In this document: piece after piece, positions 1 to 30,339 of the stretch
Numbering within the stretch: position 1 is the first letter of the stretch
How the letters are laid out: the number at the start of each line of letters is the position of its first letter
NCBI GenBank assembly: GCA_048881705.1
Contig: JBHLSH010000015.1
Coordinates: 1-54,762, forward strand
Length of the DNA: 54,762 nucleotides
Reading direction: 5' to 3'
Source of the DNA: Candidatus Heimdallarchaeota archaeon
GTDB lineage: Archaea > Asgardarchaeota > Heimdallarchaeia > Hodarchaeales > Hodarchaeaceae
Translations under genes and position numbers: made by a program
The notes under the pieces: model-generated
What the model saw: only the letters and a program-made list of their open reading frames with translations
What the model was told of the DNA's origin: nothing
The model's database searches: none

Positions 1-118
1 TTCGTCTCTTTCCCTTCTTTCAATCCTTCTAGAAAATCCTCATAATACTGAGCAATGATTTTTCCACAGGTATAACAGCGGATTGGTATCATCAAGGTTT
101 GGATCACCTTCGGGAATA

Positions 119-769
119 TTAATCGCCAGTGGGGGTTGGGCGCCGTCCTCGGGGTGCCCTAAACATTTCTACTCGGAGTTCAGCATCTCTTTCGGGAGTC
201 AGTTCCCCTTTTTCTCTGAGAACTTCCTTGGTTAAAAGCCAGAAGATCATCGCTAGGGAATTGCGGCCTTTGTTATTACATGGAATGGCAAGATCAATGT
301 TTCGGGTGACATTATCAGTATCAACCAATGACACCACAGGCACGCCCACGCGCGCAGCCTCCTTAAGTGCCTGACGGTCGAAATGGGGGTCAGTAATCAG
401 GACGGTTGTGGGTTCCAGGTAATCGTATCTGCCCTTGATGCTAGGATTGGTGAAGATGCCAGGAATAAACCGACCGGTAACCGCTGTAGCCCCAATGACA
501 CGACAAAAAGTTTCAACAGGGTAAACTCCATAAGCTCGGACGCTACAAGCAACGATCCGCGAGGCTACCTGTCGCGCTAGGAATTTGGCGGCTACGCGAA
601 TCCGTTGATCGGTCTGATGAACATCGAGTACATATAAACCATCATTTCGTGTCCGATATATGGCCCAGTGCATGGATTCCATGCCACTACTCGTCCCAAT
701 ATGGACACCGGCTTTTAAATAATCTTCTAAGGGGGCGAGAAGATCTCCTTCAGACTCCAGACTTGACAT
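119..769 (-). CDS. rps2: 30S ribosomal protein uS2
   Basis: YLKAGVHIGT, YVLDV, GRFIPGIFTNP, EAARVGVPVVSLVDTDN, IPCNNKGRNS motifs. Start moved from 838 to the ATG at 769 (MSSLES). Confidence 0.96.
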   Translation of the reverse strand: MSSLESEGDLLAPLEDYLKAGVHIGTSSGMESMHWAIYRTRNDGLYVLDVHQTDQRIRVAAKFLARQVASRIVACSVRAYGVYPVETFCRVIGATAVTGRFIPGIFTNPSIKGRYDYLEPTTVLITDPHFDRQALKEAARVGVPVVSLVDTDNVTRNIDLAIPCNNKGRNSLAMIFWLLTKEVLREKGELTPERDAELRVEMFRAPRGRRPTPTGD

Positions 770-945
770 TGGACACGGATACCTCAGATTATATGTTATT
801 TCGGTATTGGTTCTAACTATCCGGCGTTCTAGCTCCAAATAATCCTTAGAACTCGTTGAGGGCTAGCTTTTGCGGGGGTTAAGAAGTTTTGCGGGAGATT
901 ACCAGAATTGAAGAAAATCATATCCGAGTTCCATTTCCTCCTTCC

Positions 946-1707
946 CTACTCATATAGGAACTGGATTGTTTTTTGTTCGGAACCATCTGCCCAAAAGGCC
1001 TTTTTCGTGAGTACCATGATTTTCATGAGCTCCCTTATGTCGCGCGGGGGGAGATTTGACCATGATTGTTTCATCTTGACGATATCAAACGCGGTGACCA
1101 TGTCATACCCGTTTTGAAAGGCATAATTGAATAAATCTTCAGCGTAGCTTTGGAGTGTTTTCCAATACACACGCAAACGATTCTTTTGGTCATCCCACCA
1201 TTTGGCTTTTCCTTTCTCAATTAAAAAATCAGAAATTAGGATCAACTGTTGAGTAGTGAGCTTTTTACGCAAGACAGGATTATGAAAAGGGTAGACCAGA
1301 CTGATCTCTTGCAGATCAATGACATGTATATTTAGAAGCCTGGCAAAATCAAAAAGGAAATCCCCCCAGGTTAACAACCATTGTTGCCTGAGTTGAGGAT
1401 CCTCAGGAACCATCCACCGCCAAGGCTTTTGTACCCAAGGCGGTAGAATAGGTTTAATTCGCGGGTCTACAGTTCCCGGACTCAACTTCAATGAGCTGGC
1501 GCGTTTAACCGAAGTTTGAGTTTGTGGGGCCTCTGTTTGAGTAGGTTGCGGAATCCGTGGTTTGGGCGTAGGAGATTTAACTTTCGGAGCGGGAGGAGAA
1601 GTTTTGGCGGCTTGGGACTGAGTAACCTGATCGAGGACATTTTCAAGCACATCAACTGAATCCCGATCCTGTTTTTTCTTAGGACGTTTGCGCTGCATCT
1701 CAGCCAT
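946..1707 (-). CDS. vps25: ESCRT-II subunit Vps25-like with Pro/Lys/Thr-rich N-terminal extension
   Basis: PPW...RQQWLLTWGDFL, PFHN...RKKL, GKAKW...LRVYWKT resemble eukaryotic Vps25 tandem winged helices; lies in the ESCRT cluster. Confidence 0.88.
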   Translation of the reverse strand: MAEMQRKRPKKKQDRDSVDVLENVLDQVTQSQAAKTSPPAPKVKSPTPKPRIPQPTQTEAPQTQTSVKRASSLKLSPGTVDPRIKPILPPWVQKPWRWMVPEDPQLRQQWLLTWGDFLFDFARLLNIHVIDLQEISLVYPFHNPVLRKKLTTQQLILISDFLIEKGKAKWWDDQKNRLRVYWKTLQSYAEDLFNYAFQNGYDMVTAFDIVKMKQSWSNLPPRDIRELMKIMVLTKKAFWADGSEQKTIQFLYE

Positions 1708-1765
1708 ACAAGGTCACGTTTGTAATAGTTGCCTCTCCTGGTAAGACTGTCATATGTATTTACAA

Positions 1766-2911
1766 CTAGCCTCCAAATTGGTCTCTCCATTCTTCAAATC
1801 GAGAAAGCTCCTTAGGGGAGACGGAGGGTTTGATGTGCTCCATACTAGATAGGAAATCGTTTGTATCGGGATTACGCGGTCTAATTTCGCGGTTTTTTAA
1901 GGCCCCGTCGGCATCCAGCTCTCGAATGGGGATCATCAAGGCTTCTCGGCATAGTAAGGCAATATCAGCAGCGGTATACCCCGCTGTATATTTTGCCATC
2001 TCCATGAAACTGAGATCAGGATCGAGTTCTACCCCACGTGTATGAATTTCAAACATCTTTTCACGAGCTGCAGTGGTAGGCAATGTCACATAAACACGCC
2101 GTTCAAAGCGCCGACGCATGGCTGCGTCAATGTCCCAGGGAGTGTTTGTGGCACCGATGGTTACTAGCAGCTCGTCTCCCGTTCCAAATCCCTCAACAGC
2201 TTGGAGAAGCTGGGTTTTGATCCGCCTCATAGCTTCATTTTCCGTCCCGCCTCCTCGTCTCCCCCCCAAGGCATCTATTTCATCAAAGAAAATGATTGAG
2301 GGAGCCTCCTCGGCCGCGCGATCATATAGTTCTTGTACCAGCTTTTCTGATTCTCCCAACCATTTCGACACCAGACTAGCCGCTGAAACTGAAAAAAAAG
2401 TAGAGTCCACTTCCGAGGCCACCGCCTTGCAAAGATAAGTTTTACCACAGCCAGGAGGTCCAAACATTAGAATCCCTCGCCAAGGACGTCTTGCACCTTT
2501 AAAAAGGTCAGGACGAGACATAGGAAGGATAATAGCCTCACGCAGAGTTCTTTTCGCCCCTTCCATCCCAGCAACATCTTCCCACTTAACATTCGGTTTT
2601 TCACGAACGATAACACTAGAAATAGCGCCAGAAATTTCATCTTCTTGCTCTCGTGGAGCACCTCGGGTTGAAGAGGAAGATTTACTCTCTGAAGGTTCTA
2701 TAATTCCACGGATTTCCTTGACACGAAAAATGTACTCCATTGCCTTGCGATAATACAATTCTTTCATATTTGGGTCATCTGTGAAATTAATAAGCTTTTG
2801 TAGTTGCTCTGCAGCGTTCACGTAATGACGAACTGCCTGATGGGATTGACCACTTTGATCCAACTGATAGGCACGAGCCGCGTTCTTTTTGGCCTGTTCA
2901 AATAGACTCAT
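1766..2911 (-). CDS. vps4: Vps4 AAA+ ATPase (MIT + AAA)
   Basis: N-terminal MIT (AARAYQLDQSG...Y..AAE.L), Walker A GPPGCGKT, pore loop SKWLGESEK, Walker B IIFFDEID, RRRFERR. Start likely ATG 2911 (MSLFEQ). Confidence 0.96.
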   Translation of the reverse strand: MSLFEQAKKNAARAYQLDQSGQSHQAVRHYVNAAEQLQKLINFTDDPNMKELYYRKAMEYIFRVKEIRGIIEPSESKSSSSTRGAPREQEDEISGAISSVIVREKPNVKWEDVAGMEGAKRTLREAIILPMSRPDLFKGARRPWRGILMFGPPGCGKTYLCKAVASEVDSTFFSVSAASLVSKWLGESEKLVQELYDRAAEEAPSIIFFDEIDALGGRRGGGTENEAMRRIKTQLLQAVEGFGTGDELLVTIGATNTPWDIDAAMRRRFERRVYVTLPTTAAREKMFEIHTRGVELDPDLSFMEMAKYTAGYTAADIALLCREALMIPIRELDADGALKNREIRPRNPDTNDFLSSMEHIKPSVSPKELSRFEEWRDQFGG

Positions 2912-2974
2912 AGTGAGGACACCAATGATTGAAACTGGAATGGGAGCCAATGAAGGAGAGGGGAAAGAGAGGAA

Positions 2975-3589
2975 TTAGCTTTTCTTGATTTTCTCTAGCT
3001 CTTTTTGAAGCTCCTGTGACCGAATATCGGGCGAGGGAAGCCCAAAATCTGCCGCTGCAGCTTTGGAAGCACTAATTTCTCCAATTATTTTGTCTACCAT
3101 TTCGTCTTCTTCGACATCAGAGGTCATAAGATCAAAACCTTCATCCATTGCCTCGGTAGCTAGATCTATACGTTCTGTTTCAATTTCCATCTGATTTAGC
3201 ACTCCCTCCAACTGCGGAATTCTTAGCTGCGCGTTCATTGAGTGTAAAGTTCTAACTAATCCCTTTAAATCTTGGCCAATCGCTTGAGTCGCTGCTGCTT
3301 GTTCCAGCTTGAATTTAATCCCTTTAACCCGGCTAGCCATTTGCTGGCAGCCCCGGGCCATGGCCCGATTTTTCGCAACGTCCTTGGCTAGGAGGCGGGC
3401 AGTAGAAACGTCGCCATCTTCAATGGAACGTTCTACTTCCTTCATCATCCGCTTTTCCTCTTTGATCAGCTTGCTACGCTGACGAAGCATTCGTTTTTCG
3501 ACCATACGGAGGCGGACAATCCATTTACGTGTTGCCTGTGCTTGATTACCTCCACCCTTAAGCCAGTTACCGAACTTGTCAAATACCAT
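2975..3589 (-). CDS. ESCRT-III subunit, Vps2/24/46 (CHMP1-3) class
   Basis: Basic N-half/acidic C-half helical Snf7 fold; ARLLAKDVAK, QLEGVLNQME; C-terminal MIM1-like ELQKELEKIK; directly upstream of vps4. Confidence 0.92.
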   Translation of the reverse strand: MVFDKFGNWLKGGGNQAQATRKWIVRLRMVEKRMLRQRSKLIKEEKRMMKEVERSIEDGDVSTARLLAKDVAKNRAMARGCQQMASRVKGIKFKLEQAAATQAIGQDLKGLVRTLHSMNAQLRIPQLEGVLNQMEIETERIDLATEAMDEGFDLMTSDVEEDEMVDKIIGEISASKAAAADFGLPSPDIRSQELQKELEKIKKS

Positions 3590-3593
3590 CGGT

Positions 3594-4265
3594 TTAGGAC
3601 CTCAATCCTTCTTCAATTTGTTTTCGCATTTCATCAAGCTTCTTTTTGTCCGCTTCGCGGCTGGTTGTGGTGCCTTCTTCGGTTTGAGCGGAAACCATAT
3701 CTGGGGAGGAGGATACAGGAGTATCGGCTGCTGGAACCCCAGAGGCAAGTTCGGCCTCGAGTTCTGCCATTTGTTGAGAGATCCGATCATCAGCCTCTAC
3801 ATCCATACCAATTTCTGTAATGGTTGTGTCCGTAAGGGCATCTTCCATGTCAGCTACCATTTCCATCGAACTCTCTAGGCCCATCATAACTTCTTCAGTT
3901 CGCTCGGGAGAGGCCGATGCTATGTTTGAATCGATCGCAGTTTGTGCGGATGCTAAAGTCTCCGTTAATGCTACGTTATCAGCAGAGATATCCAGAGTAT
4001 CTATTGTACGTTGAAGATTAGCAATTTTAGAGTGAGTCCGAGTCACCTGGGTGAGGTATAGTTCTCTCCGTTTCAAGGCCTCATGAGCCCCAGGCTTGTT
4101 TCCCGCTTTTAACAGGGTACGAGCCAGCTCATACTGCTCATCTGCTTGCCGCTGATAGTTGCGTATCTTTAATTCCATCTGATTGATAGTACGTTTGAGC
4201 TTTGCCTTGGTTTCAGTCGATGAACTCGGTTTGTTCTTCGTTAAAAACCCTCTTAGGCGTTTCAA
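3594..4265 (-). CDS. ESCRT-III subunit, Vps20/32/60 (Snf7/CHMP4-6) class
   Basis: K..A..ALKRR.LY..Q pattern (GNKPGAHEALKRRELYLTQ), acidic C-half; TTG start, N-terminal amphipathic KRLRGFL. Confidence 0.92.
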   Translation of the reverse strand: MKRLRGFLTKNKPSSSTETKAKLKRTINQMELKIRNYQRQADEQYELARTLLKAGNKPGAHEALKRRELYLTQVTRTHSKIANLQRTIDTLDISADNVALTETLASAQTAIDSNIASASPERTEEVMMGLESSMEMVADMEDALTDTTITEIGMDVEADDRISQQMAELEAELASGVPAADTPVSSSPDMVSAQTEEGTTTSREADKKKLDEMRKQIEEGLRS

Positions 4266-4497
4266 ATAAGTTTCAACCCTTTATATAACAATATGATTGT
4301 GATTCTTGCTGGATAGAGCGTTTTGAAATTGCCCCTAATCCAGACATCCTCTACGAATAATAGATTGATTATGCATAATTGTCTTTAGAATTTAAGACTT
4401 TCCTATGGGTACCTCATCAAGAGCATCTAAGAAAACGAGGAGCGGTTTCACTTCCTTAGGATGACTTGTTACGATTAAACTCCATCGAAGATAACTT

Positions 4498-5214
4498 TTA
4501 CATACCGGGAAATGATAAGATTACCCCATCTAATGTCTCGGAGCGTATTACAATTTTTTTCTGGATTAATGGTGACAAGGTTTGATCGATGCGCTCAATA
4601 CTCCATCCTGTTTCTTTGATCAAGTCTGTAAGATTTATCTCCCCATTATATCGAGCCGCTAGGTTTAGGATTGTATGATGGTCTTGGCTAAGATTTGGAT
4701 CAATGAACTCAACTACTTGCATTCCACCTAGCTCTCGAATATTATGAACCAGTCCATTAGAGACAAGAAGATCTAATGCCTGCGAAATATCAGAAATAGC
4801 AACCGTTATGCCTTGACTCTCATCATTTAGTTTTAGGATAATCTCAGTGGTACTTAGAAGTCCACCGGTCCTGTTTCGTTCATTTTTTCCGATTTCCAAA
4901 ATTCGCAATGCAAGGAAGTTCAGGTATTCATCCTTTCCCTTTAAACGTTGAATGAACGAGGGTTTTTCACCTACTTCATAAATTCCGATGGCCCGGGGAA
5001 GTCCTAGTTCCTCCCGTAGATTCATGAGTTGTTTACTCAAAGCAGGATTCTTTTTAAAATCAGTTTCATACTTCTTTTCAAGATCTTGGAGATCTCTATG
5101 TAGAGAATGAACCTGCTGGCTCATTTTCTCGAGAGATTTTAAGGCCATCTCGGCTCCTTTCCTTTTCATCTCTGTTTCGCGAAGGAGCTTTTCTTCAATT
5201 CGTCTTAGACCCAT
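4498..5214 (-). CDS. vps22: ESCRT-II subunit Vps22/36-like (EAP30 domain)
   Basis: Aligns by eye with Snf8/Vps22 (KKNP.L..Q, LALRILEI...RTGGLL, DH.TILNLA...G.I, TGWSIERIDQTL..LIQK). Start likely ATG 5214 (MGLRRI); no GLUE domain. Confidence 0.9.
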   Translation of the reverse strand: MGLRRIEEKLLRETEMKRKGAEMALKSLEKMSQQVHSLHRDLQDLEKKYETDFKKNPALSKQLMNLREELGLPRAIGIYEVGEKPSFIQRLKGKDEYLNFLALRILEIGKNERNRTGGLLSTTEIILKLNDESQGITVAISDISQALDLLVSNGLVHNIRELGGMQVVEFIDPNLSQDHHTILNLAARYNGEINLTDLIKETGWSIERIDQTLSPLIQKKIVIRSETLDGVILSFPGM

Positions 5215-5415
5215 CAAAATGCACCCGCTATAAAATTCAGTTAAATCGTGTTTTATTACTCTGATCACAGGCAATAAATACTCAAGTTGATCGACTTAAA
5301 ATGTTTTAGAAACAATAACCAACAGAGGATCATGACATGTCCGAAGTTTCTTCCTTTTTAAGGGAGGCTTAGTGGAGGAAGTCTGGATCGCTATACACAG
5401 GCCTGGTTCTCGAGA

Positions 5416-6762
5416 ATGTCATCCTCTTCTAATGAGCTTTTTTGTTCTTTTTGTGGGGTCCAGATCCAGAAGGGGAAGGGGTATAAGTGCCAAGAGTGTC
5501 AAGCAATTTTCTGTGCATTGTGTGGAGTCAAACGAGGAAACCAAGGTTTGCTTATAACGTGTAAGTGTGGTTCAGGTATTGTTAACAGGGAAGAATCCAA
5601 TTTAGATCTGAAAACTGAACTTTTAGAGCATTTATTCGCTTTGAAGAAGGCGTTAAAGCAGGTAGCATACCGACCTGTCGTCCTCTTAAAGAGATTAGGT
5701 CATTTAGAGTCACAGCTACGTCCCTTGACGACAAAATTCTTAATTCCAATAGAACAGATAGACCGCATGTTCTCTGACACCAAGGAGATTGAGGAATTTA
5801 TTCTAGAGGAATTTAAGGAGTTTTCAACCAAACTTCATCGATATTATCAAAATATCAATGAGGTAAAGGGGATCGCTAGTAGTTCTTCCGATCTTGCCCT
5901 ACAGTTAACCCTTTTTCAAAAACAGGTCCAAACGTTTGATCAAACCGTTCAAATGAGACTTCGGTCAATAGAGGACCTCCTAGATGACTTATTTTCCGAA
6001 TACACCGCTATTCATGAGATGGAAACGGAATTACGCCAATTTTCAGATGTTACTGGATTTGGACCAGGAGAGCTAGGGATCAGTCTGTTCCCAAAGGTTG
6101 AACTAAACGGTGAAAGTGTTCGTAAGACAAGCGTAAATATGCTGATCACTACCAACCGTATTCTATTCCTGCAAAAGAAAAGGAAAAACGTATTAGGCTG
6201 TGAATTTGTCCTATATGACGAATTTGGCACTGGTGATCTTGTCGATGTAAAAATTGTTGAGGAAGGCTTTCTTAAACGTCGCAAATTAATAATCCAAGCT
6301 ATGAAACGGGAGTATGGGCTATACTCGGATAACGGTACACTAGATCAAATTGTAAAAAGTCTCCAGATAGGTTATTACGGAGAACCTAACAATAATTATA
6401 CGCATAAACCGCTCCGAGATTGGTCTTCTGAGGTGTATCAGGAGGAAATTCTTTCAGCCTTAAACTTCTCAATGAATCCAAAGGAAGATCATGCAATGCT
6501 TGATTCTACTTCCCCATTATTTCCTGAAAGAACACCCAATTACGTTTCAGAAGTGGTAGATGAGCACCTTCGTGATCTTCGTGTCCAAAAAATGGCAACG
6601 ATAAAAGCCTTGGAAGAACTCAAGACTGGAGGTCGTAAAGTAACCAATCGAGATTATTTTGATCTAGTAAAGCAATTTGAACTTGACTTAGCCAAAATCA
6701 ATGAAAAGATAACAGATCTATTGGTGCGATCCGGAAGAACAAACTTATATGATTATTTCTAA
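5416..6762 (+). CDS. Multidomain ESCRT-associated protein: 8-Cys FYVE-like Zn finger, coiled coil, PH/GRAM/GLUE-like domain, C-terminal steadiness-box-like hairpin
   Basis: C10-x2-C13-x11-C25-x2-C28-x4-C33-x2-C36-x12-C49-x-C51; MLITTNRILF...DLVDVKIVEEGFLKRRKLII; ATIKALEELKTGG..V...DYFDLVKQ. CDS certain; domain calls by eye. Confidence 0.6.
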   Translation: MSSSSNELFCSFCGVQIQKGKGYKCQECQAIFCALCGVKRGNQGLLITCKCGSGIVNREESNLDLKTELLEHLFALKKALKQVAYRPVVLLKRLGHLESQLRPLTTKFLIPIEQIDRMFSDTKEIEEFILEEFKEFSTKLHRYYQNINEVKGIASSSSDLALQLTLFQKQVQTFDQTVQMRLRSIEDLLDDLFSEYTAIHEMETELRQFSDVTGFGPGELGISLFPKVELNGESVRKTSVNMLITTNRILFLQKKRKNVLGCEFVLYDEFGTGDLVDVKIVEEGFLKRRKLIIQAMKREYGLYSDNGTLDQIVKSLQIGYYGEPNNNYTHKPLRDWSSEVYQEEILSALNFSMNPKEDHAMLDSTSPLFPERTPNYVSEVVDEHLRDLRVQKMATIKALEELKTGGRKVTNRDYFDLVKQFELDLAKINEKITDLLVRSGRTNLYDYF

Positions 6763-6785
6763 TCTAGGAATCGCTCTTTTAAGGA

Positions 6786-7409
6786 TTAAAGATTCCTAAG
6801 TTCGCGACGAAAATCCGAGAGCCAACGTGCCACTTGAAGCTCTAATTTTTCGAGTTCATCTTTTTTCAATAGAACTCCGGCTTTTTGATTGTCCATCCAT
6901 GCAATCCATTCTGTAATATCCTTGCTTACCCAATGATCTTCGCCATAGATGGCGGAACTCAATAAAATGGCATGTAATTCATCCAAATATGGAAGAATGC
7001 GATCTACGGTAGCAATAGCCTCCAATCTAAGCAAATCCAGCAGCTCAATTGCGTGTGCCACAAATTCGGCCACTTGTGACGGGAGTTGCGTTATGCGTTG
7101 GTAATCAATGCGGTTTTGAACCATATCATCCGTACCTTCGGTTCTACGAAGTTTTTCTAATCCGAAAGGATATAACTGGTCAACCTGCTCTTCCTTAATG
7201 AAAGCGTCCAGGTCAAAGTGATATGGTTCAAGAGAAGCCCTAACCTCCACAATTGTCGTTAACAAACTTTTATACTGTTTGTGAAAAATATTTGGCTCTA
7301 TTTCTCCTCGTTCGTAAGTTCGGGATAAGAGGTCAAGGGTACTTATACAGGCAAATAGCCGCCCCTCCAAATCCCACCTTTGAGATAGAGTGGATGGAAA
7401 TGTTATCAC
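6786..7409 (-). CDS. vps28: ESCRT-I subunit Vps28
   Basis: LFACISTLDLLSRTYERGEI, VAEFVAHAIELLDLLRL, ILPYLDEL, W...M....L match Vps28 N- and C-terminal domains. Confidence 0.9.
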   Translation of the reverse strand: MITFPSTLSQRWDLEGRLFACISTLDLLSRTYERGEIEPNIFHKQYKSLLTTIVEVRASLEPYHFDLDAFIKEEQVDQLYPFGLEKLRRTEGTDDMVQNRIDYQRITQLPSQVAEFVAHAIELLDLLRLEAIATVDRILPYLDELHAILLSSAIYGEDHWVSKDITEWIAWMDNQKAGVLLKKDELEKLELQVARWLSDFRRELRNL

Positions 7410-7415
7410 TTTTGA

Positions 7416-8159
7416 TCAGCTCAGATACTCTAGTTGTTTTCTAACGACATAGAGTTCCTTCATGTATTGACGAAACAGTCGTGAATACTCAAAAATGGAA
7501 ATATCTCCGCGAGAATAGCGGTCTTCTAAAGAGGACAGTAATTCCGAGATTGCGAGACGTTCTGACTCTAGGCTTTCTCTTTCAGAGAGAGATGTGGATC
7601 TAGAGAACTCTGGAGAACTAGCTTGAACAGTTTGTTGGGCTCTCAATCGAGAAAGCTCTTCTTCTTTTTCCTGAAGTTGATCCGACAAGCTATTCAGTTC
7701 TGTTCGAAGAACCCGAGTCTCTACAGACTCTTGCTGCGCGGGGGTGGCGGGAGTTATCGGGGCTAATCTAGCCATTGTTTCTCTTACAGTTTTAGCATCT
7801 TTAGCTGCTTCACCCTTAGGTCTGGGAGGAACTCGCGACATGAGATTTTTGAGTGCGATTATTACCTGGTATAGGTGAAATTCGGCTCGCCAGTTATCCA
7901 AGATGCGTAGCTGAACAAAACCATCTTCATCCACATTGGGATGATCCATAAATCCTGGTGCAGTAACCACGGGAGGAACATTCGGGTAATATTCTGGCAG
8001 AAAAATTTCAAACACGAAGCGCGCCCGCCCTTGACTTGTTGTGTATGTCAAGGTGCCTTGCCACCTGTCTAAAGTATCGCCTACAGGATCAAAACCGGCT
8101 GCAGCAGAATTAGAATATACAAGCTGGGCTTCCCTTGCTAGAATAAAGTCACGATCCAT
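7416..8159 (-). CDS. vps23: ESCRT-I UEV-Vps23/TSG101-like protein
   Basis: UBC fold (FEIFLPEYYPNVPP, HPNVDEDGFVQL with catalytic Cys replaced by Gln), Pro-rich linker, coiled coil, steadiness box LEDRYSRGDISIFEYSRLFRQY. Confidence 0.9.
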   Translation of the reverse strand: MDRDFILAREAQLVYSNSAAAGFDPVGDTLDRWQGTLTYTTSQGRARFVFEIFLPEYYPNVPPVVTAPGFMDHPNVDEDGFVQLRILDNWRAEFHLYQVIIALKNLMSRVPPRPKGEAAKDAKTVRETMARLAPITPATPAQQESVETRVLRTELNSLSDQLQEKEEELSRLRAQQTVQASSPEFSRSTSLSERESLESERLAISELLSSLEDRYSRGDISIFEYSRLFRQYMKELYVVRKQLEYLS

Positions 8160-24244: not shown

Positions 24245-24406
24245 AACACCTGAAAACTTTTATTCTTGTTCATTCTATTCTTTTTGAGAAGTCTTAAAAT
24301 TGACTTTTTAATCAATCACTAGAAGATTGGAAACAAGATAAAATCAGAATTCAGTATAAGTAATTGAGGATTACATCTCTTTTTTTTTTGTACACGTCAC
24401 AGAGGT

Positions 24407-24718
24407 TTGACAGAAATGAGTCAGGCGTATTTGGAAGTTGTCGAACGCTTTATCAAACTCCAAAATCTTATCAATGAAGACGATAAAGATATGCGAAGAA
24501 AACCAAAGAAAGTGGCCCGAATTGCCTCCATGTTGGCCATGGCAAGTCTACATTCTAATTTTTCCCTTGATAAGCAATATGCAGTCTATAAAGCAATGAT
24601 TCAGACCATGAGTGAGGAAATTCCTAACTTCAGAGCTTTAGGTGATTCAGTGGACGACATCGCGGCCAATTTAATTCTTGCATCGGAGTTAAACAAGCGA
24701 CTACGTCTTAAAAGATAA
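24407..24718 (+). CDS. Hypothetical helical protein
   Basis: 103-aa ORF divergent from E2; no motif. Confidence 0.6.
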   Translation: MTEMSQAYLEVVERFIKLQNLINEDDKDMRRKPKKVARIASMLAMASLHSNFSLDKQYAVYKAMIQTMSEEIPNFRALGDSVDDIAANLILASELNKRLRLKR

Positions 24719-24886
24719 CATTGTCACCTTGCAATTCTTCTACTCCGACCATAGTAAGTATTCTTCTCTAGCTGTGCCAAATTATCCATTATTCACCTTA
24801 GAATAAATAATCCAATTTCGTACGTGGTGGACTAGTTACCCTAGTGACTGTCAAAACCCATTTATATAATTGCTCAGGAGAAACAA

Positions 24887-24934
24887 ATGAGGCAAAAAAC
24901 AATGTGGGATTGCCAAATGCTTTATATTTCATGA
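24887..24934 (+). other. Candidate Met-rich leader micro-ORF (MRQKTMWDCQMLYIS) upstream of metG
   Basis: TATA-like tttatataa at 24861, ATG 24887, 3 Met codons in 15, followed by a T7 tract and a 9-bp inverted repeat. Confidence 0.25.
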
Positions 24935-25035
24935 ATTACCTCTTTTTTTAAAGCAATCCCATCTTGTTCAGAACCAAACCCTTGTTCATGCAAGGCTGCT
25001 TATTTTAAAACTATTTAGTGTACTCTCTATAGGTT

Positions 25036-27138
25036 GTGATAAATATGGAAGATTTAAATGGTAAGAAATACGTTATATGTCCCGCCTGGCCCTATATAAA
25101 CTTCGATTCTACTGGGGCCTTACACCTGGGCTCACTATTACATCTATTAAGTGCAGATGTTTATGTACGGTATTTGAAATTAAGAGGAGCAGATGTGATT
25201 TCGGCCACGGGATCAGATTGCCATGGAACACCCATTGAAGTAGCGGCTTTGAAGGAAGGAATCACTCCAAAGGAATTGGTAGAAAGAAACCACGCTAGAA
25301 CTCTAGAATTGCTGACGGAATGGAATATCGATTTAAATTACTCAAAAACCGCGAATTCCTTTCATCATTCGTTTGTTCAGGATTTTTATCGCCGCTGTTT
25401 TGAAAATGGTTATATCTTCAAAAAAACAATTGACCAACTTTACTGTGAAACAGATCGACGTTTTTTACCTGATCGTTTCGTTGAGGGAACGTGTCCTTAT
25501 TGCGGTGCGGATGATGCACGGGGAGATCAATGTGACGGATCCTGTGGAAAACCGCTAACTCCGACTGAGCTTATTAATCCTCGCTGTAAGCTTTGCGGGA
25601 ATGCGCCAAAAGTGAAAAAAACGACCCAATGGTATTATAATTTCGCTGCTTTTCAGGAAAAGTTAGTAAAATACATTCAGAACAATCCCCATCTCCCTGA
25701 AAATGCCCGGAATTTTTCGGAACAGATTCTGGAGGAAGGAATTCAAGCTCGCACATTGACCAGAGATCTAGATTGGGGGATTCCTGCAGAAAAGGCCATC
25801 CCTGAAGCGAAGGGAAAAACTATTTATGTGTGGTTGGATGCGGTATTGGGGTATGTTTCCGCGTCTGCTGAACTGGGAGTCAATGAACACGATGATAATG
25901 AGTTTTGGAAGCAGTATTGGTTAGATCAGGAGACTCGGACTGTTTTTTTCATTGGAAAGGATAACATCTTTTTCCACACACTCCTCCTACCTGCCCTATT
26001 ATTGGGTACGGAGGAAAGTTACGGAAAACCCTTTGTTTTACCACATAATGTAAGTACGACTGAGTTCCTGAACTTCGAGGAATTAAAGTTTAGTAAATCT
26101 AAGGGGATTGGTGTATGGATTGATGATGCAGCCAATCTTCTCCCTACGGATTATTGGAGATACTATCTTGTGGCAACACGTCCAGAAACCAAGGATTACT
26201 CATTCACTTGGGAGGACTTCGAGCAACGGATTAACACTGATTTGAACGATGTTTTTGGTAACTATGTGCATAGAGTGTTAGTTTTGGTTCAGAAATATTG
26301 TGAGGGGATACTCCCTGAAAATCATCGTCTTGACGAGGTGGATAAGGAATTCGTATCCGCAATCCACCATACTCCTGAACTCGTCGCTGAACATTTCGAC
26401 CGTTACGAATATAAAAAAGCCATAGGAGCCGTTGTTGACTTCGCTCGAAAGTCAAACACCTACCTCAGTACGAAAGAACCGTGGAAACTTGTGAAAACTG
26501 ATTTTGCGTCTACTGAGACCACGCTATTCTTGTGTGTACAATCATTGGTAACATTAAGTATCCTCAGTTCTCCCGTTCTTCCAGAAGCGTCTGAGAAAAT
26601 TTGGCAGGCACTCGGACTGGAAGGATCGGCGGCAGAACAGACATTTGAGGAAGCGGGCAAGTTGAAGCTAAACCCAGGGATCAAAATTCATTCTATAGAG
26701 CCCCTATTTGCCAAAGTTGAGTCCGCCGTGTTAATACAAAAATTGGAAGAAATACATGCATCCAAAGATACGATTAACAAGGAAGTGAAAACCTTCGATC
26801 AAAAAATCCCCATCGTAACACTGGAAGAATTCCAGAGATTGGATATCCGAATTGGAACTATTGTTCATGTCGAAAAAGTTCCCAAAACGGAACGATTGCT
26901 CAAACTTAAAGTAGATCTTGGCCCTGAAATCGGGGAACGCCAATTAGTGGCAGGCCTAGCTGAATTCAGAAAACCCGAAGATTTAATAGGTCAAAAAATC
27001 ACTGTCATCGTCAATTTGCAACCTACTACCATCAGGGGGGCCCAATCTGAAGGGATGTTACTCGCTGCCACCTCTGACAATCAACTTGGCCTCCTGGCGC
27101 CGGATGCGGATATTCCAAACGGGGCGAAAGTCAGTTAA
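25036..27138 (+). CDS. metG: Methionyl-tRNA synthetase with C-terminal tRNA-binding (Trbp111-like) domain
   Basis: HLGS (HIGH), G.D.HG.PI, Zn knuckles, YVWLDA, GKDNIFFH, KFSKS, LDIRIG...SEGMLLA. Start GTG 25036 or ATG 25045. Confidence 0.97.
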   Translation: MINMEDLNGKKYVICPAWPYINFDSTGALHLGSLLHLLSADVYVRYLKLRGADVISATGSDCHGTPIEVAALKEGITPKELVERNHARTLELLTEWNIDLNYSKTANSFHHSFVQDFYRRCFENGYIFKKTIDQLYCETDRRFLPDRFVEGTCPYCGADDARGDQCDGSCGKPLTPTELINPRCKLCGNAPKVKKTTQWYYNFAAFQEKLVKYIQNNPHLPENARNFSEQILEEGIQARTLTRDLDWGIPAEKAIPEAKGKTIYVWLDAVLGYVSASAELGVNEHDDNEFWKQYWLDQETRTVFFIGKDNIFFHTLLLPALLLGTEESYGKPFVLPHNVSTTEFLNFEELKFSKSKGIGVWIDDAANLLPTDYWRYYLVATRPETKDYSFTWEDFEQRINTDLNDVFGNYVHRVLVLVQKYCEGILPENHRLDEVDKEFVSAIHHTPELVAEHFDRYEYKKAIGAVVDFARKSNTYLSTKEPWKLVKTDFASTETTLFLCVQSLVTLSILSSPVLPEASEKIWQALGLEGSAAEQTFEEAGKLKLNPGIKIHSIEPLFAKVESAVLIQKLEEIHASKDTINKEVKTFDQKIPIVTLEEFQRLDIRIGTIVHVEKVPKTERLLKLKVDLGPEIGERQLVAGLAEFRKPEDLIGQKITVIVNLQPTTIRGAQSEGMLLAATSDNQLGLLAPDADIPNGAKVS

Positions 27139-27189
27139 AACCACTATCTGTCTCCGTTCTAGAATCAAGACAATCCGCTATTTTGGGCA

Positions 27190-28344
27190 ATGAAAGGATT
27201 TGATGTTATGGGCAATCAATGGGACGTCATAATCTATGAGGACTCATCCAAAAAGGTAGTAAACACCCGATTAAGACTTACAAAAGATACACTAGCCGTT
27301 GCGGGGCAACATGGGAAAGCTACAGTGCTTATTGACGAACACGAGCAAGAATGGCTGCTTAAAACCTTCAATAATCTTATCGATCATGAAGTCAATATGA
27401 TGTACGATTTAGATGTAGATATAGAAGGCTCTCCAGAAGAAGGGAAAGATAGAATGCATCTTTGGCGAGTTCTCTGTGAATTCGTTGCGTCACGTCTTGG
27501 TCACCAAATAAAGTTGAAGATTCCAAAGACTCTTATCCTGTGTTCTCAGTTGGTGGCGAATTTCGAACTAACAACTTCTTCACCACTGATGCTAGATCCC
27601 GAAGTCGTTATCTTAGACGAGGAAGGTGTAGCGGAAACCGCAGAGGAGTATTATGGTTATTCAGAACGGGATGCATACTCATTTGAGACATCAAAGGCAT
27701 TTGAAAAATTACTTGCAGAAAAAAGTGTGCAGGGCGATCCATCAAGTGTTCTTGCGGTCTTGATAAAGAAAATCCCAAATACAGTGAACTTGGATCAGTT
27801 TTTGGATCAACACGCGGGAGGAATTGATGACGCATTTAGTCTTATTCAAAAGGTTGACGACGGATATTATCTACTTCCCTTTGATATTTGGTTAAATGAT
27901 CCAGATCGGAATGCAGGGAATTATTTGGTACAATTGGATGAATCTAACAACATTAAGAACCTTTGGGGTATCGATTACGAGATGTGGGCATTAGGATCGG
28001 ATATCTGGATGGAGGAGGATGAGATTACCAAGGGCCGCAGCTATCTTACAGCGATAATTCACCCTGTAAGCCACCTTTTCGATCCAAGAATCTCACAAAC
28101 TGTTCACCGAATGAGGAATTTAACCGAGGAAGAGGTCGTAATGATGACTAAAGCACCTCAGCTTTTGTGCAAGTGGTTTGAATATCATATCACTCAAAAA
28201 AATCTAAATGCCGACGAACGTATTGTCCTCAAACAAGTTGAATCAAATTTGGAAGACTTTCTTCTAGAATCAAAACCTCGAACTGATAAATTAACCAACA
28301 ACCTCGAACGACAGATCGGACTTCCCCCCGATTTTGATGATTAG
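27190..28344 (+). CDS. HipA-like / type-II PI4K-like atypical kinase
   Basis: Gly loop AGQHGKA, WLLK (ATP Lys), CEFVASRLG...IP.T (alphaC Glu), FDIWLNDPDRNAGNYL (catalytic loop), GIDYE (Mg-binding). Confidence 0.72.
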   Translation: MKGFDVMGNQWDVIIYEDSSKKVVNTRLRLTKDTLAVAGQHGKATVLIDEHEQEWLLKTFNNLIDHEVNMMYDLDVDIEGSPEEGKDRMHLWRVLCEFVASRLGHQIKLKIPKTLILCSQLVANFELTTSSPLMLDPEVVILDEEGVAETAEEYYGYSERDAYSFETSKAFEKLLAEKSVQGDPSSVLAVLIKKIPNTVNLDQFLDQHAGGIDDAFSLIQKVDDGYYLLPFDIWLNDPDRNAGNYLVQLDESNNIKNLWGIDYEMWALGSDIWMEEDEITKGRSYLTAIIHPVSHLFDPRISQTVHRMRNLTEEEVVMMTKAPQLLCKWFEYHITQKNLNADERIVLKQVESNLEDFLLESKPRTDKLTNNLERQIGLPPDFDD

Positions 28345-28398
28345 TCTCTCAGAAATTTGCATCCTCAAATGATCTGGTTTTTGGCGGTTTTGACCTAA

Positions 28399-29448
28399 AT
28401 GATTCGAGGTTTTTCAAGATGGACAGGATATGATTGCTTCCTTTGTTTTCACAAATGCTGTACCACGGAATACGAGCTTCCTCTACTTTCTTCAGAAGCA
28501 CAATACTTGAAGCGCCATTATCCAATTTCATCCTGCTTAATAAGAAAGAGCGAGAGAGGGGAAGTTCTAACCAGAGGGGATTCTTGTATTTTCTTAACAA
28601 CACAGGGTCTTTGTACACTACATGATGATCATACGAAGCCATTGGTTTGCAAAACATTTCCGTTAATCTTTTGGAAAATCAGTCCCGAAGAATATTTGGC
28701 ATGGATTTATCCTTGTGGCCGTGGATCTGGGTTCCAATGGATTATTGAACCCGAAAAACGAATAGAAGATGATTTGATCTCAGAAATGTATGGAATGGCA
28801 CGAAACCATTTTAATAGTTTCTGGGGTGAACAAATAGACCATGAAAACCCGTTTGATGAGATTTCCATTGAGAGAGTTAAAAAAGAGCAGAGATATTTCC
28901 AGAATCTAGGAGACAAACATCTGCTTGAAGACCTGGTAAAGTTTGGGGAAATTAACTTTCTTACAGCCCCGCTCTCTTCAATGATTGCTATTTTTAACAA
29001 AGATCTAAATCAAAATGAATTCAAACAAACTGTATCAGCGGTCTTACATTGGTTAAGTTGGAGCCCTGTAGGGCTTCAATTGACGTTTATTAACGCAAAA
29101 CTTATTTTTATTGCCGCTGCTCTATGGGCATACATAATTGGATTTATCCAAAGATCCCATGATCTTAAAAAGGATGGCCTTTACCAAGGAAGGATTTCTG
29201 ACTATCCAATATCAACATTCTTACCTGAAGATTCGGTTAACCCACAGCAAGATCATTTTACTCTTCCAAAAAGGCACATAACTCACCATTTGGGATTTTT
29301 TATAGCAAGAGCTATTTTACCATCCTTTTGGGCCGATGTTGTTTCACATTCCTCTGATCGAGGGCTTCAATCATTTGCAAAGGTCGTTCAGGCAGTCCTT
29401 GAAGGTCGAACACCCCAACAGGAGTTACAACAGTTCTTTCGCAGATGA
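28399..29448 (+). CDS. YkgJ-family cysteine-cluster (CxxCxxCC) protein with C-terminal helical extension
   Basis: CFLCFHKCC...CIFL...LCTLH...KPLVCKTFP. Confidence 0.8.
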   Translation: MIRGFSRWTGYDCFLCFHKCCTTEYELPLLSSEAQYLKRHYPISSCLIRKSERGEVLTRGDSCIFLTTQGLCTLHDDHTKPLVCKTFPLIFWKISPEEYLAWIYPCGRGSGFQWIIEPEKRIEDDLISEMYGMARNHFNSFWGEQIDHENPFDEISIERVKKEQRYFQNLGDKHLLEDLVKFGEINFLTAPLSSMIAIFNKDLNQNEFKQTVSAVLHWLSWSPVGLQLTFINAKLIFIAAALWAYIIGFIQRSHDLKKDGLYQGRISDYPISTFLPEDSVNPQQDHFTLPKRHITHHLGFFIARAILPSFWADVVSHSSDRGLQSFAKVVQAVLEGRTPQQELQQFFRR

Positions 29449-29516
29449 AACCAATAACCCCTGGACAAAAGTAAAGAATTAAGAATGTGTCCCAATTCCA
29501 GGTAATATGATCAATT

Positions 29517-29690
29517 ATGGCAGGTTCACACGGATCATTAACAAAAGCAGGAAAGGTTCGTAATCAAACCCCAAAGGTTCAAGCTCGACCACGTAAAGGA
29601 CTTACTCCCAGTCTTAGAAGCAAAAAGAATTATTTTAAACGGGTAGTGAAAGAAATACCAGTCGGACAACCTGAATTTAGACGATCCTAG
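29517..29690 (+). CDS. rps30e: 30S ribosomal protein eS30 (57 aa; below the ORF-track cutoff)
   Basis: Manually translated MAGSHGSLTKAGKVRNQTPKVQARPRKGLTPSLRSKKNYFKRVV...; GSHGSL.KAGKVR.QTPK is the eS30 signature. Confidence 0.95.
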   Translation: MAGSHGSLTKAGKVRNQTPKVQARPRKGLTPSLRSKKNYFKRVVKEIPVGQPEFRRS

Positions 29691-29731
29691 GTTTTAATCT
29701 TTTTTGACTGTTAGGGAGCCTTTTTCGACCA

Positions 29732-30058
29732 TTATAAAGATGTACGTTCACCACATCGCTCACAGAACTTCGCATCTACTCGAAGCTCAGCACCACACCT
29801 TGCACAAAACTGGTTGGAGAAAGTACCCTCTTGAAAAGTTTCCCTCTTCTGTTTTTCTTCAAATTCCGACCACGCTGATTTGTGTGGGTTAATTCCTCTT
29901 TTTTCCTGATGTTCAAACCAATAACTCTTGCTTTTCTTCTTTTTGGGCTTGGAGGGTCTATTATTCTTACTAATTGCTTTCACGCGACCTAAGGATTGTG
30001 GGTTTCTCTGTGTACTTATTCCGCGATTGGGCTTAAAAGATCTCCCGTCATGGAACAA
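29732..30058 (-). CDS. Basic protein with C-terminal zinc ribbon
   Basis: FCARCGAELRVDAKFCERCG double CxxC; Lys-rich N-terminal part. Confidence 0.6.
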   Translation of the reverse strand: MFHDGRSFKPNRGISTQRNPQSLGRVKAISKNNRPSKPKKKKSKSYWFEHQEKRGINPHKSAWSEFEEKQKRETFQEGTFSNQFCARCGAELRVDAKFCERCGERTSL

Positions 30059-30102
30059 ACGTCATAAAAAGCTCGAAAACAAACAGAGGTAATAAGAAAA
30101 AA

Positions 30103-30207
30103 TGGTAGCGGCCGGAGGATTTGAACCGTCCGATCTTGGGGTCTCTCAGAGGAATGTTATCTTCCGCTTATGAGCCCCACGGGATAACCTGGCTACCCTA
30201 GGCCGCT
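30103..30207 (-). tRNA. tRNA-iMet(CAT) with 26-nt canonical 37/38 intron (30143-30168) and encoded CCA
   Basis: AGCGGCC/GGCCGCT acceptor (A1:U72), G29-G31:C39-C41 anticodon stem, CTCATA, BHB motif (CTCA/TGAG helix, TAA and AGA bulges), TTCAAAT T-loop. Confidence 0.93.
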
Positions 30208-30339
30208 AAAAAACTTGTTTACCTATTATAGGAATTCCTAATTGGCACACAAAAGGATTCTCTTGTGGCATTTCGGCTTATAGGATATATTAAAACGTTT
30301 TCCATCTTGGTTTTAAGTGCAATCCTGCCATGGGATGTT

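Follow-up and report, generated by a model that had tools for sequence, protein, structure and literature searches.

A previously undescribed kinase family of the PI3K/PI4K/HipA-type superfamily in the Hodarchaeales

The type II phosphatidylinositol 4-kinases (PI4KII), the Hip kinases and several stand-alone protein kinases have an atypical kinase core in common. Among the latter, CtkA, Golgi casein kinase and actin-fragmin kinase are the closest analogues of PI4KII-alpha (PMC3974213, accessible text). The same text calls two insertions unique to PI4KII-alpha, namely I1 (residues 157-190), with a palmitoylated CCPCC motif and an amphipathic helix, and the RK-rich I2 (residues 217-255), and describes a membrane face that requires basic as well as exposed aromatic or hydrophobic residues. 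Hip families, according to the accessible part of PMC8262856, are defined by four motifs and an adjacent or fused antitoxin (HipB with its helix-turn-helix, HipS, HIRAN or Stl), mostly with Ser/Thr near the Gly loop. A 2020 survey, as far as its accessible text goes, reported the PI3-kinase homologue to be absent from Asgard archaea (10.1101/2020.10.19.343400). Here we describe a kinase gene located at 27190..28344 (+) of a 54,762-nucleotide stretch of DNA from Candidatus Heimdallarchaeota archaeon (family Hodarchaeaceae, order Hodarchaeales; assembly GCA_048881705.1, contig JBHLSH010000015.1, positions 1 to 54,762), referred to below as the window. The gene belongs to a real, previously undescribed kinase family within the known superfamily. 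A first-pass annotation made from the sequence had proposed as substrate either methionyl-tRNA synthetase (MetRS) or an inositol lipid; both are less likely than a general protein-kinase role.

The gene and its catalytic and insert elements are as follows, with residues numbered from the second ATG (27208).
27190..28344, + strand: kinase open reading frame (ORF), 384 amino acids (aa) if read from the first ATG; translation probably begins at 27208, giving 378 aa
27304..27315, + strand: Gly loop G33-Q-H-G36, with no conserved Ser/Thr beside it
27361..27363, + strand: beta-3 lysine K52, a presumed ATP-binding residue by its position
27370..27456, + strand: insert 1, lying between the beta-3 lysine and helix C; about 29 aa with a net charge of -7, no CCPCC
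27478..27480, + strand: helix C glutamate E91, from model and alignment
27547..27747, + strand: insert 2, in the N-lobe ahead of the hinge; about 63-67 aa with a net charge of -11
27898..27921, + strand: catalytic loop DPDRNAGN (D233, N238), from the alignment
27973..28050, + strand: DYE(M) motif for metal binding, then the activation loop, which is acidic (net charge -5) and has GRSYL at its end

The ORF is intact and uninterrupted. In relatives of the kinase, a W-D motif lies only 3-6 residues from the N-terminus, so that translation probably starts at ATG 27208 and the gap to metG (stop at 27138) is 69 bp; the 51 bp given previously holds for the first ATG. All of the motifs that had been read from the sequence (the GQHG loop, WLLK, CEFVASRLG..IP, DPDRNAGN and IDYE) are present. 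In an alignment of 69 of 93 matched homologues, D233, R234, Y257, E258, M259, R277 and Y279 are invariant (69/69), while N238, D256 and E91 are kept in 68 and K52 in 67 members. ORF and motif set are thereby confirmed as real, far beyond chance.

An AlphaFold2 model of the protein (pLDDT 90.2, pTM 0.90) is kinase-like, and Foldseek ranked PI4KII-alpha first (E 4.9e-5). PI4KII-alpha also headed the VIA-align list with a Z score of 14.5 (root-mean-square deviation 4.7, 267 aligned residues, 11% identity), followed by PI4KII-beta (14.4), CtkA (14.0; deviation 4.2, 236 aligned), CotH (13.1), HipA (11.4), actin-fragmin kinase (11.3), HipT (10.5) and Fam20C (10.2). Rows within 1 Z count as tied, hence PI4KII-alpha and CtkA cannot be ranked against each other. 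A wide fold search agreed with this order, with actin-fragmin kinase at 11.8 and MavQ (11.3) as an addition, and a viral fold search found proteins of phages and giant viruses with this core (TMq at most 0.44). The predicted two-lobed fold with its beta-3 Lys, helix C Glu, DRxxxN loop and metal Asp places the kinase in the PI3K/PI4K/HipA-type superfamily; the HipA/PI4KII-type fold claimed at the outset is borne out by the model, the structure matches and a profile link to a HipA_2-type paralogue.

At the sequence level, searches against Pfam, NCBIfam, PADLOC and the PDB returned nothing significant for the kinase or its alignments; the PADLOC defence-kinase models did not match the query and gave three single weak matches (E 0.02-0.15) among 23 members. 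PF00454 (PI3_PI4_kinase) matched neither the query nor the kinase gene in 83 genomes and was not among the best 25 of the 34 families listed for the 69 members, and neither the PI4KII chains nor the CtkA group gave a significant sequence match in the PDB. HipA_C and HipA_2 matched 15 of the 69 members each, weakly (best E 0.016 and 0.0061), without reaching the Pfam cut-off, and did not match the kinase gene in 400 genomes. The nearest sequence relative found was a Hodarchaeal kinase family of 257 aa (L074-L079; hhalign 98%, E 2.8e-13), one member of which clears the HipA_2 cut-off (27.8 versus 27 bits). It is strongly matched in 17 of 22 genomes of the window's genus, the window's own genome not being one of them, and has the DxE motif and a DRxxGNYL loop in common with the kinase, but both inserts are absent there. 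Used as a control, the model of an insert-free 256-aa paralogue from sister genomes also ranked PI4KII first (Z 14.9), tied with CtkA (14.5); the PI4KII rank therefore reflects the core and was dropped as proof of membership. The probable ancestor of the kinase family is a small HipA_2-type kinase, whose expansion in the lineage produced at least three families.

The 257-aa family (L074-L079, L101 and L102) has the motifs GSNF...DRHGGN...IDFE, usually with a small CxxCxxCC gene downstream and often with a helical ORF upstream. A third family of the fold (417-449 aa, DRHxGNY...EIDFG) was seen in three genomes of the genus (L103:1159-2463, L104:1105-2358 and L105:1139-2488 (-)). Lys/Arg-rich by eye, it looks a better candidate for membrane or lipid activity than the window kinase.

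CtkA (3akk), CotH (5jd9), actin-fragmin kinase (1cja) and Fam20C have the same core and stand alone without an antitoxin; compared with them, the kinase shows at most 14% identity, carries two large acidic inserts and is confined to one archaeal order. With PI4KII (4hnd, 4wtv) it shares the order in which Gly loop, Lys, catalytic Asp and metal Asp follow one another, at similar distances. Judged by motif spacing rather than residue-level superposition, its inserts lie at the places of I1 and I2 of PI4KII-alpha: the K-to-P spacing is 54 versus 57, D308-L315 corresponds to D233-L240 and L349 to M259, and R360-x-Y362 possibly, by eye, to R277-x-Y279. However, the kinase lacks the CCPCC/palmitoylation insert and the long I3, insert 2 is acidic where I2 is RK-rich, the activation loop, also acidic, has about seven more residues, and the metal motif is DYE. 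None of the 69 members has a CC or CxC motif, and in none does a CCPCC-bearing I1 or an RK-rich I2 with a basic/hydrophobic face occur. Insert 1 has a mean net charge of -4.3 (range -8 to +1), insert 2 of -9.4 (-2 to -25, negative in 69/69), and the activation loop ranges from -2 to -7, negative in all. With a net charge of -30 and an isoelectric point of 4.6, the whole protein falls into the most acidic 1.7% of the 1991 ORFs of at least 250 aa in its genome, and 91 of 91 relatives tested are net negative; several distant members have tails of 35-73 aa with 37-60% Asp/Glu. A membrane segment was not found in the kinase (highest 19-residue hydropathy 1.44). An Atlas search with the insert region gave leads that all stayed under 0.9.

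One strong copy of the kinase is present in 21 of the 22 genus genomes and in 0 of 61 other genomes of the class. G009, the sole genus genome without it, is 80% complete, and its metG lies 441 bp from a contig end. Among 400 genomes of the phylum, no further match appeared apart from a weak one in G329 (E 0.005, two stops), which was dropped as a member. The kinase was not found in the second family of the order, represented by two genomes (G022 and G023, 80-85% complete). Related loci are from Asgard archaea, chiefly Hodarchaeota and Heimdallarchaeota, including Ca. Hodarchaeum mangrovi; distant members (34-52% identity) occur in other Hodarchaeales bins, including HeimC3_42270 of LC_3. A profile of 23 diverse members retrieved 93 matches at E up to 1 from the protein collection, all of the family, and 1.84 billion representatives, searched exhaustively, contained 16 matches; since the longest of these does not exceed 441 aa, there is no fusion among them that hints at function. 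Over 19 genomes the mean identity is 0.68 for the kinase and 0.74 for MetRS. Pairwise identities of the kinase correlate with those of MetRS (rho 0.89) and of four other neighbours (0.70-0.79), and the trees of kinase and neighbours have their starred clades in common. The correlation with MetRS reflects common descent and is no demonstration of co-evolution. The kinase is thus a resident, single-copy, vertically inherited gene of Hodarchaeales.

A published description of the family was not found, most subscription journals and the bioRxiv supplements (asCOG, cluster tables) lying outside the search; these supplements may list the family without a name. Nothing in the literature searched joined HipA kinases with Asgard archaea. 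PMC12962969 (main text, and supplements except file 2) has no PI4K, HipA or fragmin entry, and the accessible portions of 10.64898/2026.10.28.762692 and PMC13716822 do not mention the family. The kinase offers a small, probably soluble enzyme for testing whether lipid or protein phosphorylation by the PI3K/PI4K/HipA fold predates eukaryotes. Hodarchaeales have been put forward as the archaea most closely related to eukaryotes. If the kinase acts on protein, which we think likelier, it would be a HipA_2-type core turned into a resident regulator. Its value is limited by the fact that the core is common in bacteria and phages.

The reading we favour, to which we give about an even chance, is that of a soluble, cytosolic Ser/Thr protein kinase that is inherited vertically, serves as a regulator and acts on a basic substrate. 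It builds on the predicted fold, the catalytic set K52, E91, D233, N238 and D256, the acidic inserts and loop, the distribution and the inheritance, all of which are observed. The GQHG loop, K52 and the DYE motif would hold ATP between them in a Mg-dependent reaction, with D233 as catalytic base and E258 possibly as a further metal ligand. The two inserts and the activation loop would form a negative surface where PI4KII has its membrane and substrate face, repelling anionic lipid and recruiting a Lys/Arg-rich protein; a first guess for the latter would be a protein that binds nucleic acid and belongs to the ribosome or to the machinery of translation or chromatin. Several points weigh against this reading. 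The basic substrate is suggested by charge and by nothing else, and charge was counted along the sequence, not mapped onto the model surface. The superfamily recovered in the fold search comprises protein, lipid and glycan kinases, so that the fold does not fix the substrate class, and the top row of both Foldseek and VIA-align is a lipid kinase. Small-molecule kinases, for example choline and methylthioribose kinases, typically have DxE instead of DFG. Moreover, the invariant arginines R87, R154, R234, R277 and R338 could bind a phosphorylated ligand.

Four features of the window enter the alternatives.
[quoted passage not shown]
25036..27138, + strand: metG, encoding MetRS; neighbour of the kinase within the genus, not found adjacent outside it
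28399..29448, + strand: CxxCxxxCC (YkgJ-like) protein, 349 aa, from the Cys pattern and an indirect profile match
30103..30207, - strand: initiator tRNA-Met (CAU) with A1:U72 and a roughly 28-nt intron following the anticodon; 1.76 kb separate it from the kinase stop

The DxE motif, which is invariant in the family as DYE, might point instead to a soluble small-molecule kinase whose acidic inserts close over a pocket and whose substrate is a cationic metabolite such as an amino-alcohol, amino-sugar or polyamine. The acidic surroundings of the active site would suit such a ligand, and the superfamily includes a Fam20B-type xylose kinase; yet the insert-free paralogue has the same DxE motif, methylthioribose kinase scores far lower in the wide fold search (Z 8.1), and the kinase has no conserved co-oriented metabolic partner, the deoC, ackA, AFOR and microcompartment genes being on the opposite strand, which leaves this alternative unlikely. 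For a cytoskeletal regulator resembling actin-fragmin kinase, or a Rio-like ATPase in ribosome assembly, one may cite the Z score of 11.8 for actin-fragmin kinase in the wide search, the acidic tails of distant members and the translation genes nearby; an actin or gelsolin gene is not among the identified neighbours, Rio kinases reach just Z 8, and the family is limited to one order, so we regard such roles as improbable. Slightly more than for these last roles is to be said for a PI4KII-like kinase of archaetidylinositol or its phosphate, which would provide ESCRT or other membrane proteins with a phosphoinositide-type mark, although it too seems quite unlikely. Its best points are the inserts at the I1 and I2 places and the matching spacings, in addition to the top rank of PI4KII, which the insert-free paralogue reveals as generic. 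The genome encodes two inositol-3-phosphate synthases and has a gene resembling that of archaetidylinositol phosphate synthase (AIPS; 129.7 bits, below the cut-off of 180), so that an inositol-lipid substrate probably exists, and one distant member is located after a polyprenyl synthase gene. Against it stand the absence of CCPCC, inserts and an activation loop that are acidic where PI4KII-alpha needs basic or hydrophobic residues, and the failure of PF00454 to match the family. In archaea, moreover, archaetidylinositol 3-phosphate (AI(3)P) is formed directly via AIPS and no archaetidylinositol kinase is known (bioRxiv 10.64898/2026.04.15.718656, accessible text; the accessible text of PMC9385802 likewise gives the two-step route), and a 3-phosphate ligand thus needs no kinase. 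As to the presumed reader of the mark, the basic motif of FYVE domains is R(R/K)HHCR. The zinc finger of Znr_CC_PH_SB lacks this motif in 9 of 9 copies compared, and its gene is 20 kb away. A Znr_CC_PH_SB query matched Hodarchaeales genomes only (23 of 83), in agreement with the kinase at the level of the order; this counts in favour of the idea, though any order-specific gene would show the same pattern. G022 and G023, which yielded no match to the kinase, do contain the protein, and its family, which the 448-aa protein of the window fits, has been reported from several Asgard lineages (PMC10936438, accessible text). The earlier proposal of a lipid kinase supplying a ligand for this ESCRT protein is accordingly disfavoured: the PI4KII rank is generic, and both membrane features and the FYVE motif are absent. 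In the lipid variant, the kinase would phosphorylate archaetidylinositol or AI(3)P, and a basic partner binding the acidic inserts would perhaps bring it to the membrane. That it is the first archaeal phosphoinositide-type lipid kinase, a PI4KII relative with inserts at the I1 and I2 sites, is improbable; if true, a regulated lipid mark for the Asgard ESCRT/PH machinery would have existed before eukaryotes arose.

The remaining alternative, a HipA/HipT-like dormancy or translation switch that phosphorylates the neighbouring MetRS and acts without an antitoxin, appears very improbable. It could draw on the fold, common with HipA and HipT (Z 10.5-11.4), on Hip kinases known to phosphorylate GltX, TrpS and LysS and to have monocistronic members (PMC8262856, accessible text), on the serines in the KFSKS loop of the window MetRS, and on a surrounding region rich in translation genes. 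Four motifs and an N-terminal Gly loop as in short Hip kinases link the kinase to HipA, HipT and HipA_2 (PF07804, PF20613). In contrast to these, it has no match at E 0.001, no N-subdomain, no HipS and no HipB neighbour, and is single-copy and vertical. That no HipB antitoxin is visible had been noted rightly: neither a HipB-like gene nor any other adjacent antitoxin occurs among the neighbours at the loci examined, and the model has no extra domain. In the 69 members, Ser/Thr stays below 80% at each of positions 28 to 40; HipG likewise has no Ser/Thr beside its Gly loop (PMC8262856, accessible text). The kinase is hence not a typical toxin of a toxin-antitoxin system. The main argument for the switch was the adjacency of metG, which in 17 of 20 genus loci directly precedes the kinase on the same strand. 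Control pairs without an evident functional tie are kept as well or better (GH-E2 11/11, MBL-GH 10/10, E2-orf103 13/14, c15-MBL 8/9), other neighbour pairs being orf103-metG (13/18) and kinase-YkgJ-like (10/19); as the genus genomes are kin, these counts are not independent. In three loci of one clade, a PAS-domain gene (1100-1200 aa) on the opposite strand sets kinase and metG about 4 kb apart. Of the 17 adjacent loci, 13 have a run of at least five T no more than 20 nt from the metG stop, compared with 1/75 for tightly linked same-strand pairs, 3/34 for gaps of 31-250 nt, 1/22 for larger gaps and 12/112 for convergent ends. Archaeal terminators are oligo-T runs. The position of the run is fixed to the metG stop while the metG-kinase gap varies from 44 to 200 nt, which fits such a terminator; the window itself has no such run, so that read-through is possible there. 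A scan for sigma-70 promoters and terminators stayed at chance level, its bacterial model being unfit for archaea. No RNA holder is on record for positions 24400-30300 of the window. A complex prediction of the kinase with MetRS residues 5-565 scored 0.00 in two runs, the controls not folding either, and speaks neither for nor against the switch.

Outside the genus, the distance between NCBI protein accessions was used for 10 distant kinase clusters and 10 of the 120 listed MetRS matches (Asgard labels). Five of the 10 MetRS clusters matched kinase-bearing assemblies and yielded nine pairs, the other five matched none, and the MetRS of LC_3 is not among the 120 matches listed. The kinase and MetRS accession numbers of all nine pairs differ by 115 to 4303, the pairs covering five kinase clusters and three clades (MFW9993628/MFW9995969, MFQ5977264/MFQ5981567, MHA1168830/MHA1166354, MHA2270678/MHA2271490, MFW9914833/MFW9917612, MHA2501054/MHA2499450, MHA1990389/MHA1991283, MHA2103046/MHA2103161 and MHA2337871/MHA2339582); that both accessions are from one assembly was deduced from accession range and label, least surely for the first two pairs, and the comparison would overlook a second MetRS of the window's type if those bins had one. 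On the distant contig L049 (kinase 38% identity), a polyprenyl synthase gene, not metG, is upstream. The MetRS of the paired outside genomes are just 34-37% identical to that of the window, and the kinase therefore persists across two MetRS types. The adjacency looks like a local, genus-level gene order and, being no better kept than the controls and not seen in the nine outside pairs and L049, no longer serves as a sign of a switch on MetRS. The genus MetRS is 33-38% identical to other MetRS of Hodarchaeales and the Heimdall group and 43% to that of G050, with KFSKS versus KFSTS, which suggests two MetRS types and possibly a displacement. In L040:1-2079, metG is split into two ORFs, and in L094 it contains one TAA; both are probably assembly errors.

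Beyond metG, the neighbours of the kinase in the genus loci are YkgJ-like, deoC, ackA or PAS genes. The downstream 349-aa ORF has no direct Pfam match, but a profile of five small relatives, one of which passes PF03692, matches it with 17.9 bits (E 0.001 versus the genome ORFs), making the YkgJ-like label reasonable. The gene is co-oriented with the kinase in the window, as had been stated; this orientation is local to the branch, since the gene lies directly downstream in 10 of 20 genus loci and is convergent in 9 of these 10, and it was rejected as an operon partner. The pair A1:U72 is the rule for initiator tRNAs. The initiator tRNA-Met, which ARAGORN and Rfam missed, is real and lies at about the 1.8 kb given in the first-pass annotation; the genes between it and the kinase vary, and it was set aside as a bystander. 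A short ORF at 29517-29690 (+), below the ORF length cut-off, presumably encodes ribosomal protein S30e. Upstream of metG, a helical ORF of 103 aa (24407-24718, +) without a family is conserved in 16 loci including the window.

Elsewhere in the window, positions 946-8159 hold a complete Asgard ESCRT cluster (Vps25, Vps4, two Snf7, Vps22, Znr_CC_PH_SB, Vps28 and UEV), with E1-like, RING and E2 genes further along. The Znr_CC_PH_SB gene of L087 has one TGA, probably an assembly error. In L096:916-2975, an inositol-3-phosphate synthase gene is directly followed by one for a DGGGP-synthase-like prenyltransferase, suggesting inositol ether lipids. In 7 of 20 genus loci (L024:9130-17119, L034, L035, L037, L039, L040 and L041), the kinase and a bacterial-microcompartment locus are convergent; the latter comprises two EutN/CcmL genes, RpiB, BMC shell proteins, an RnfC/PduS-like protein, aldehyde dehydrogenase, DeoC and often AckA.

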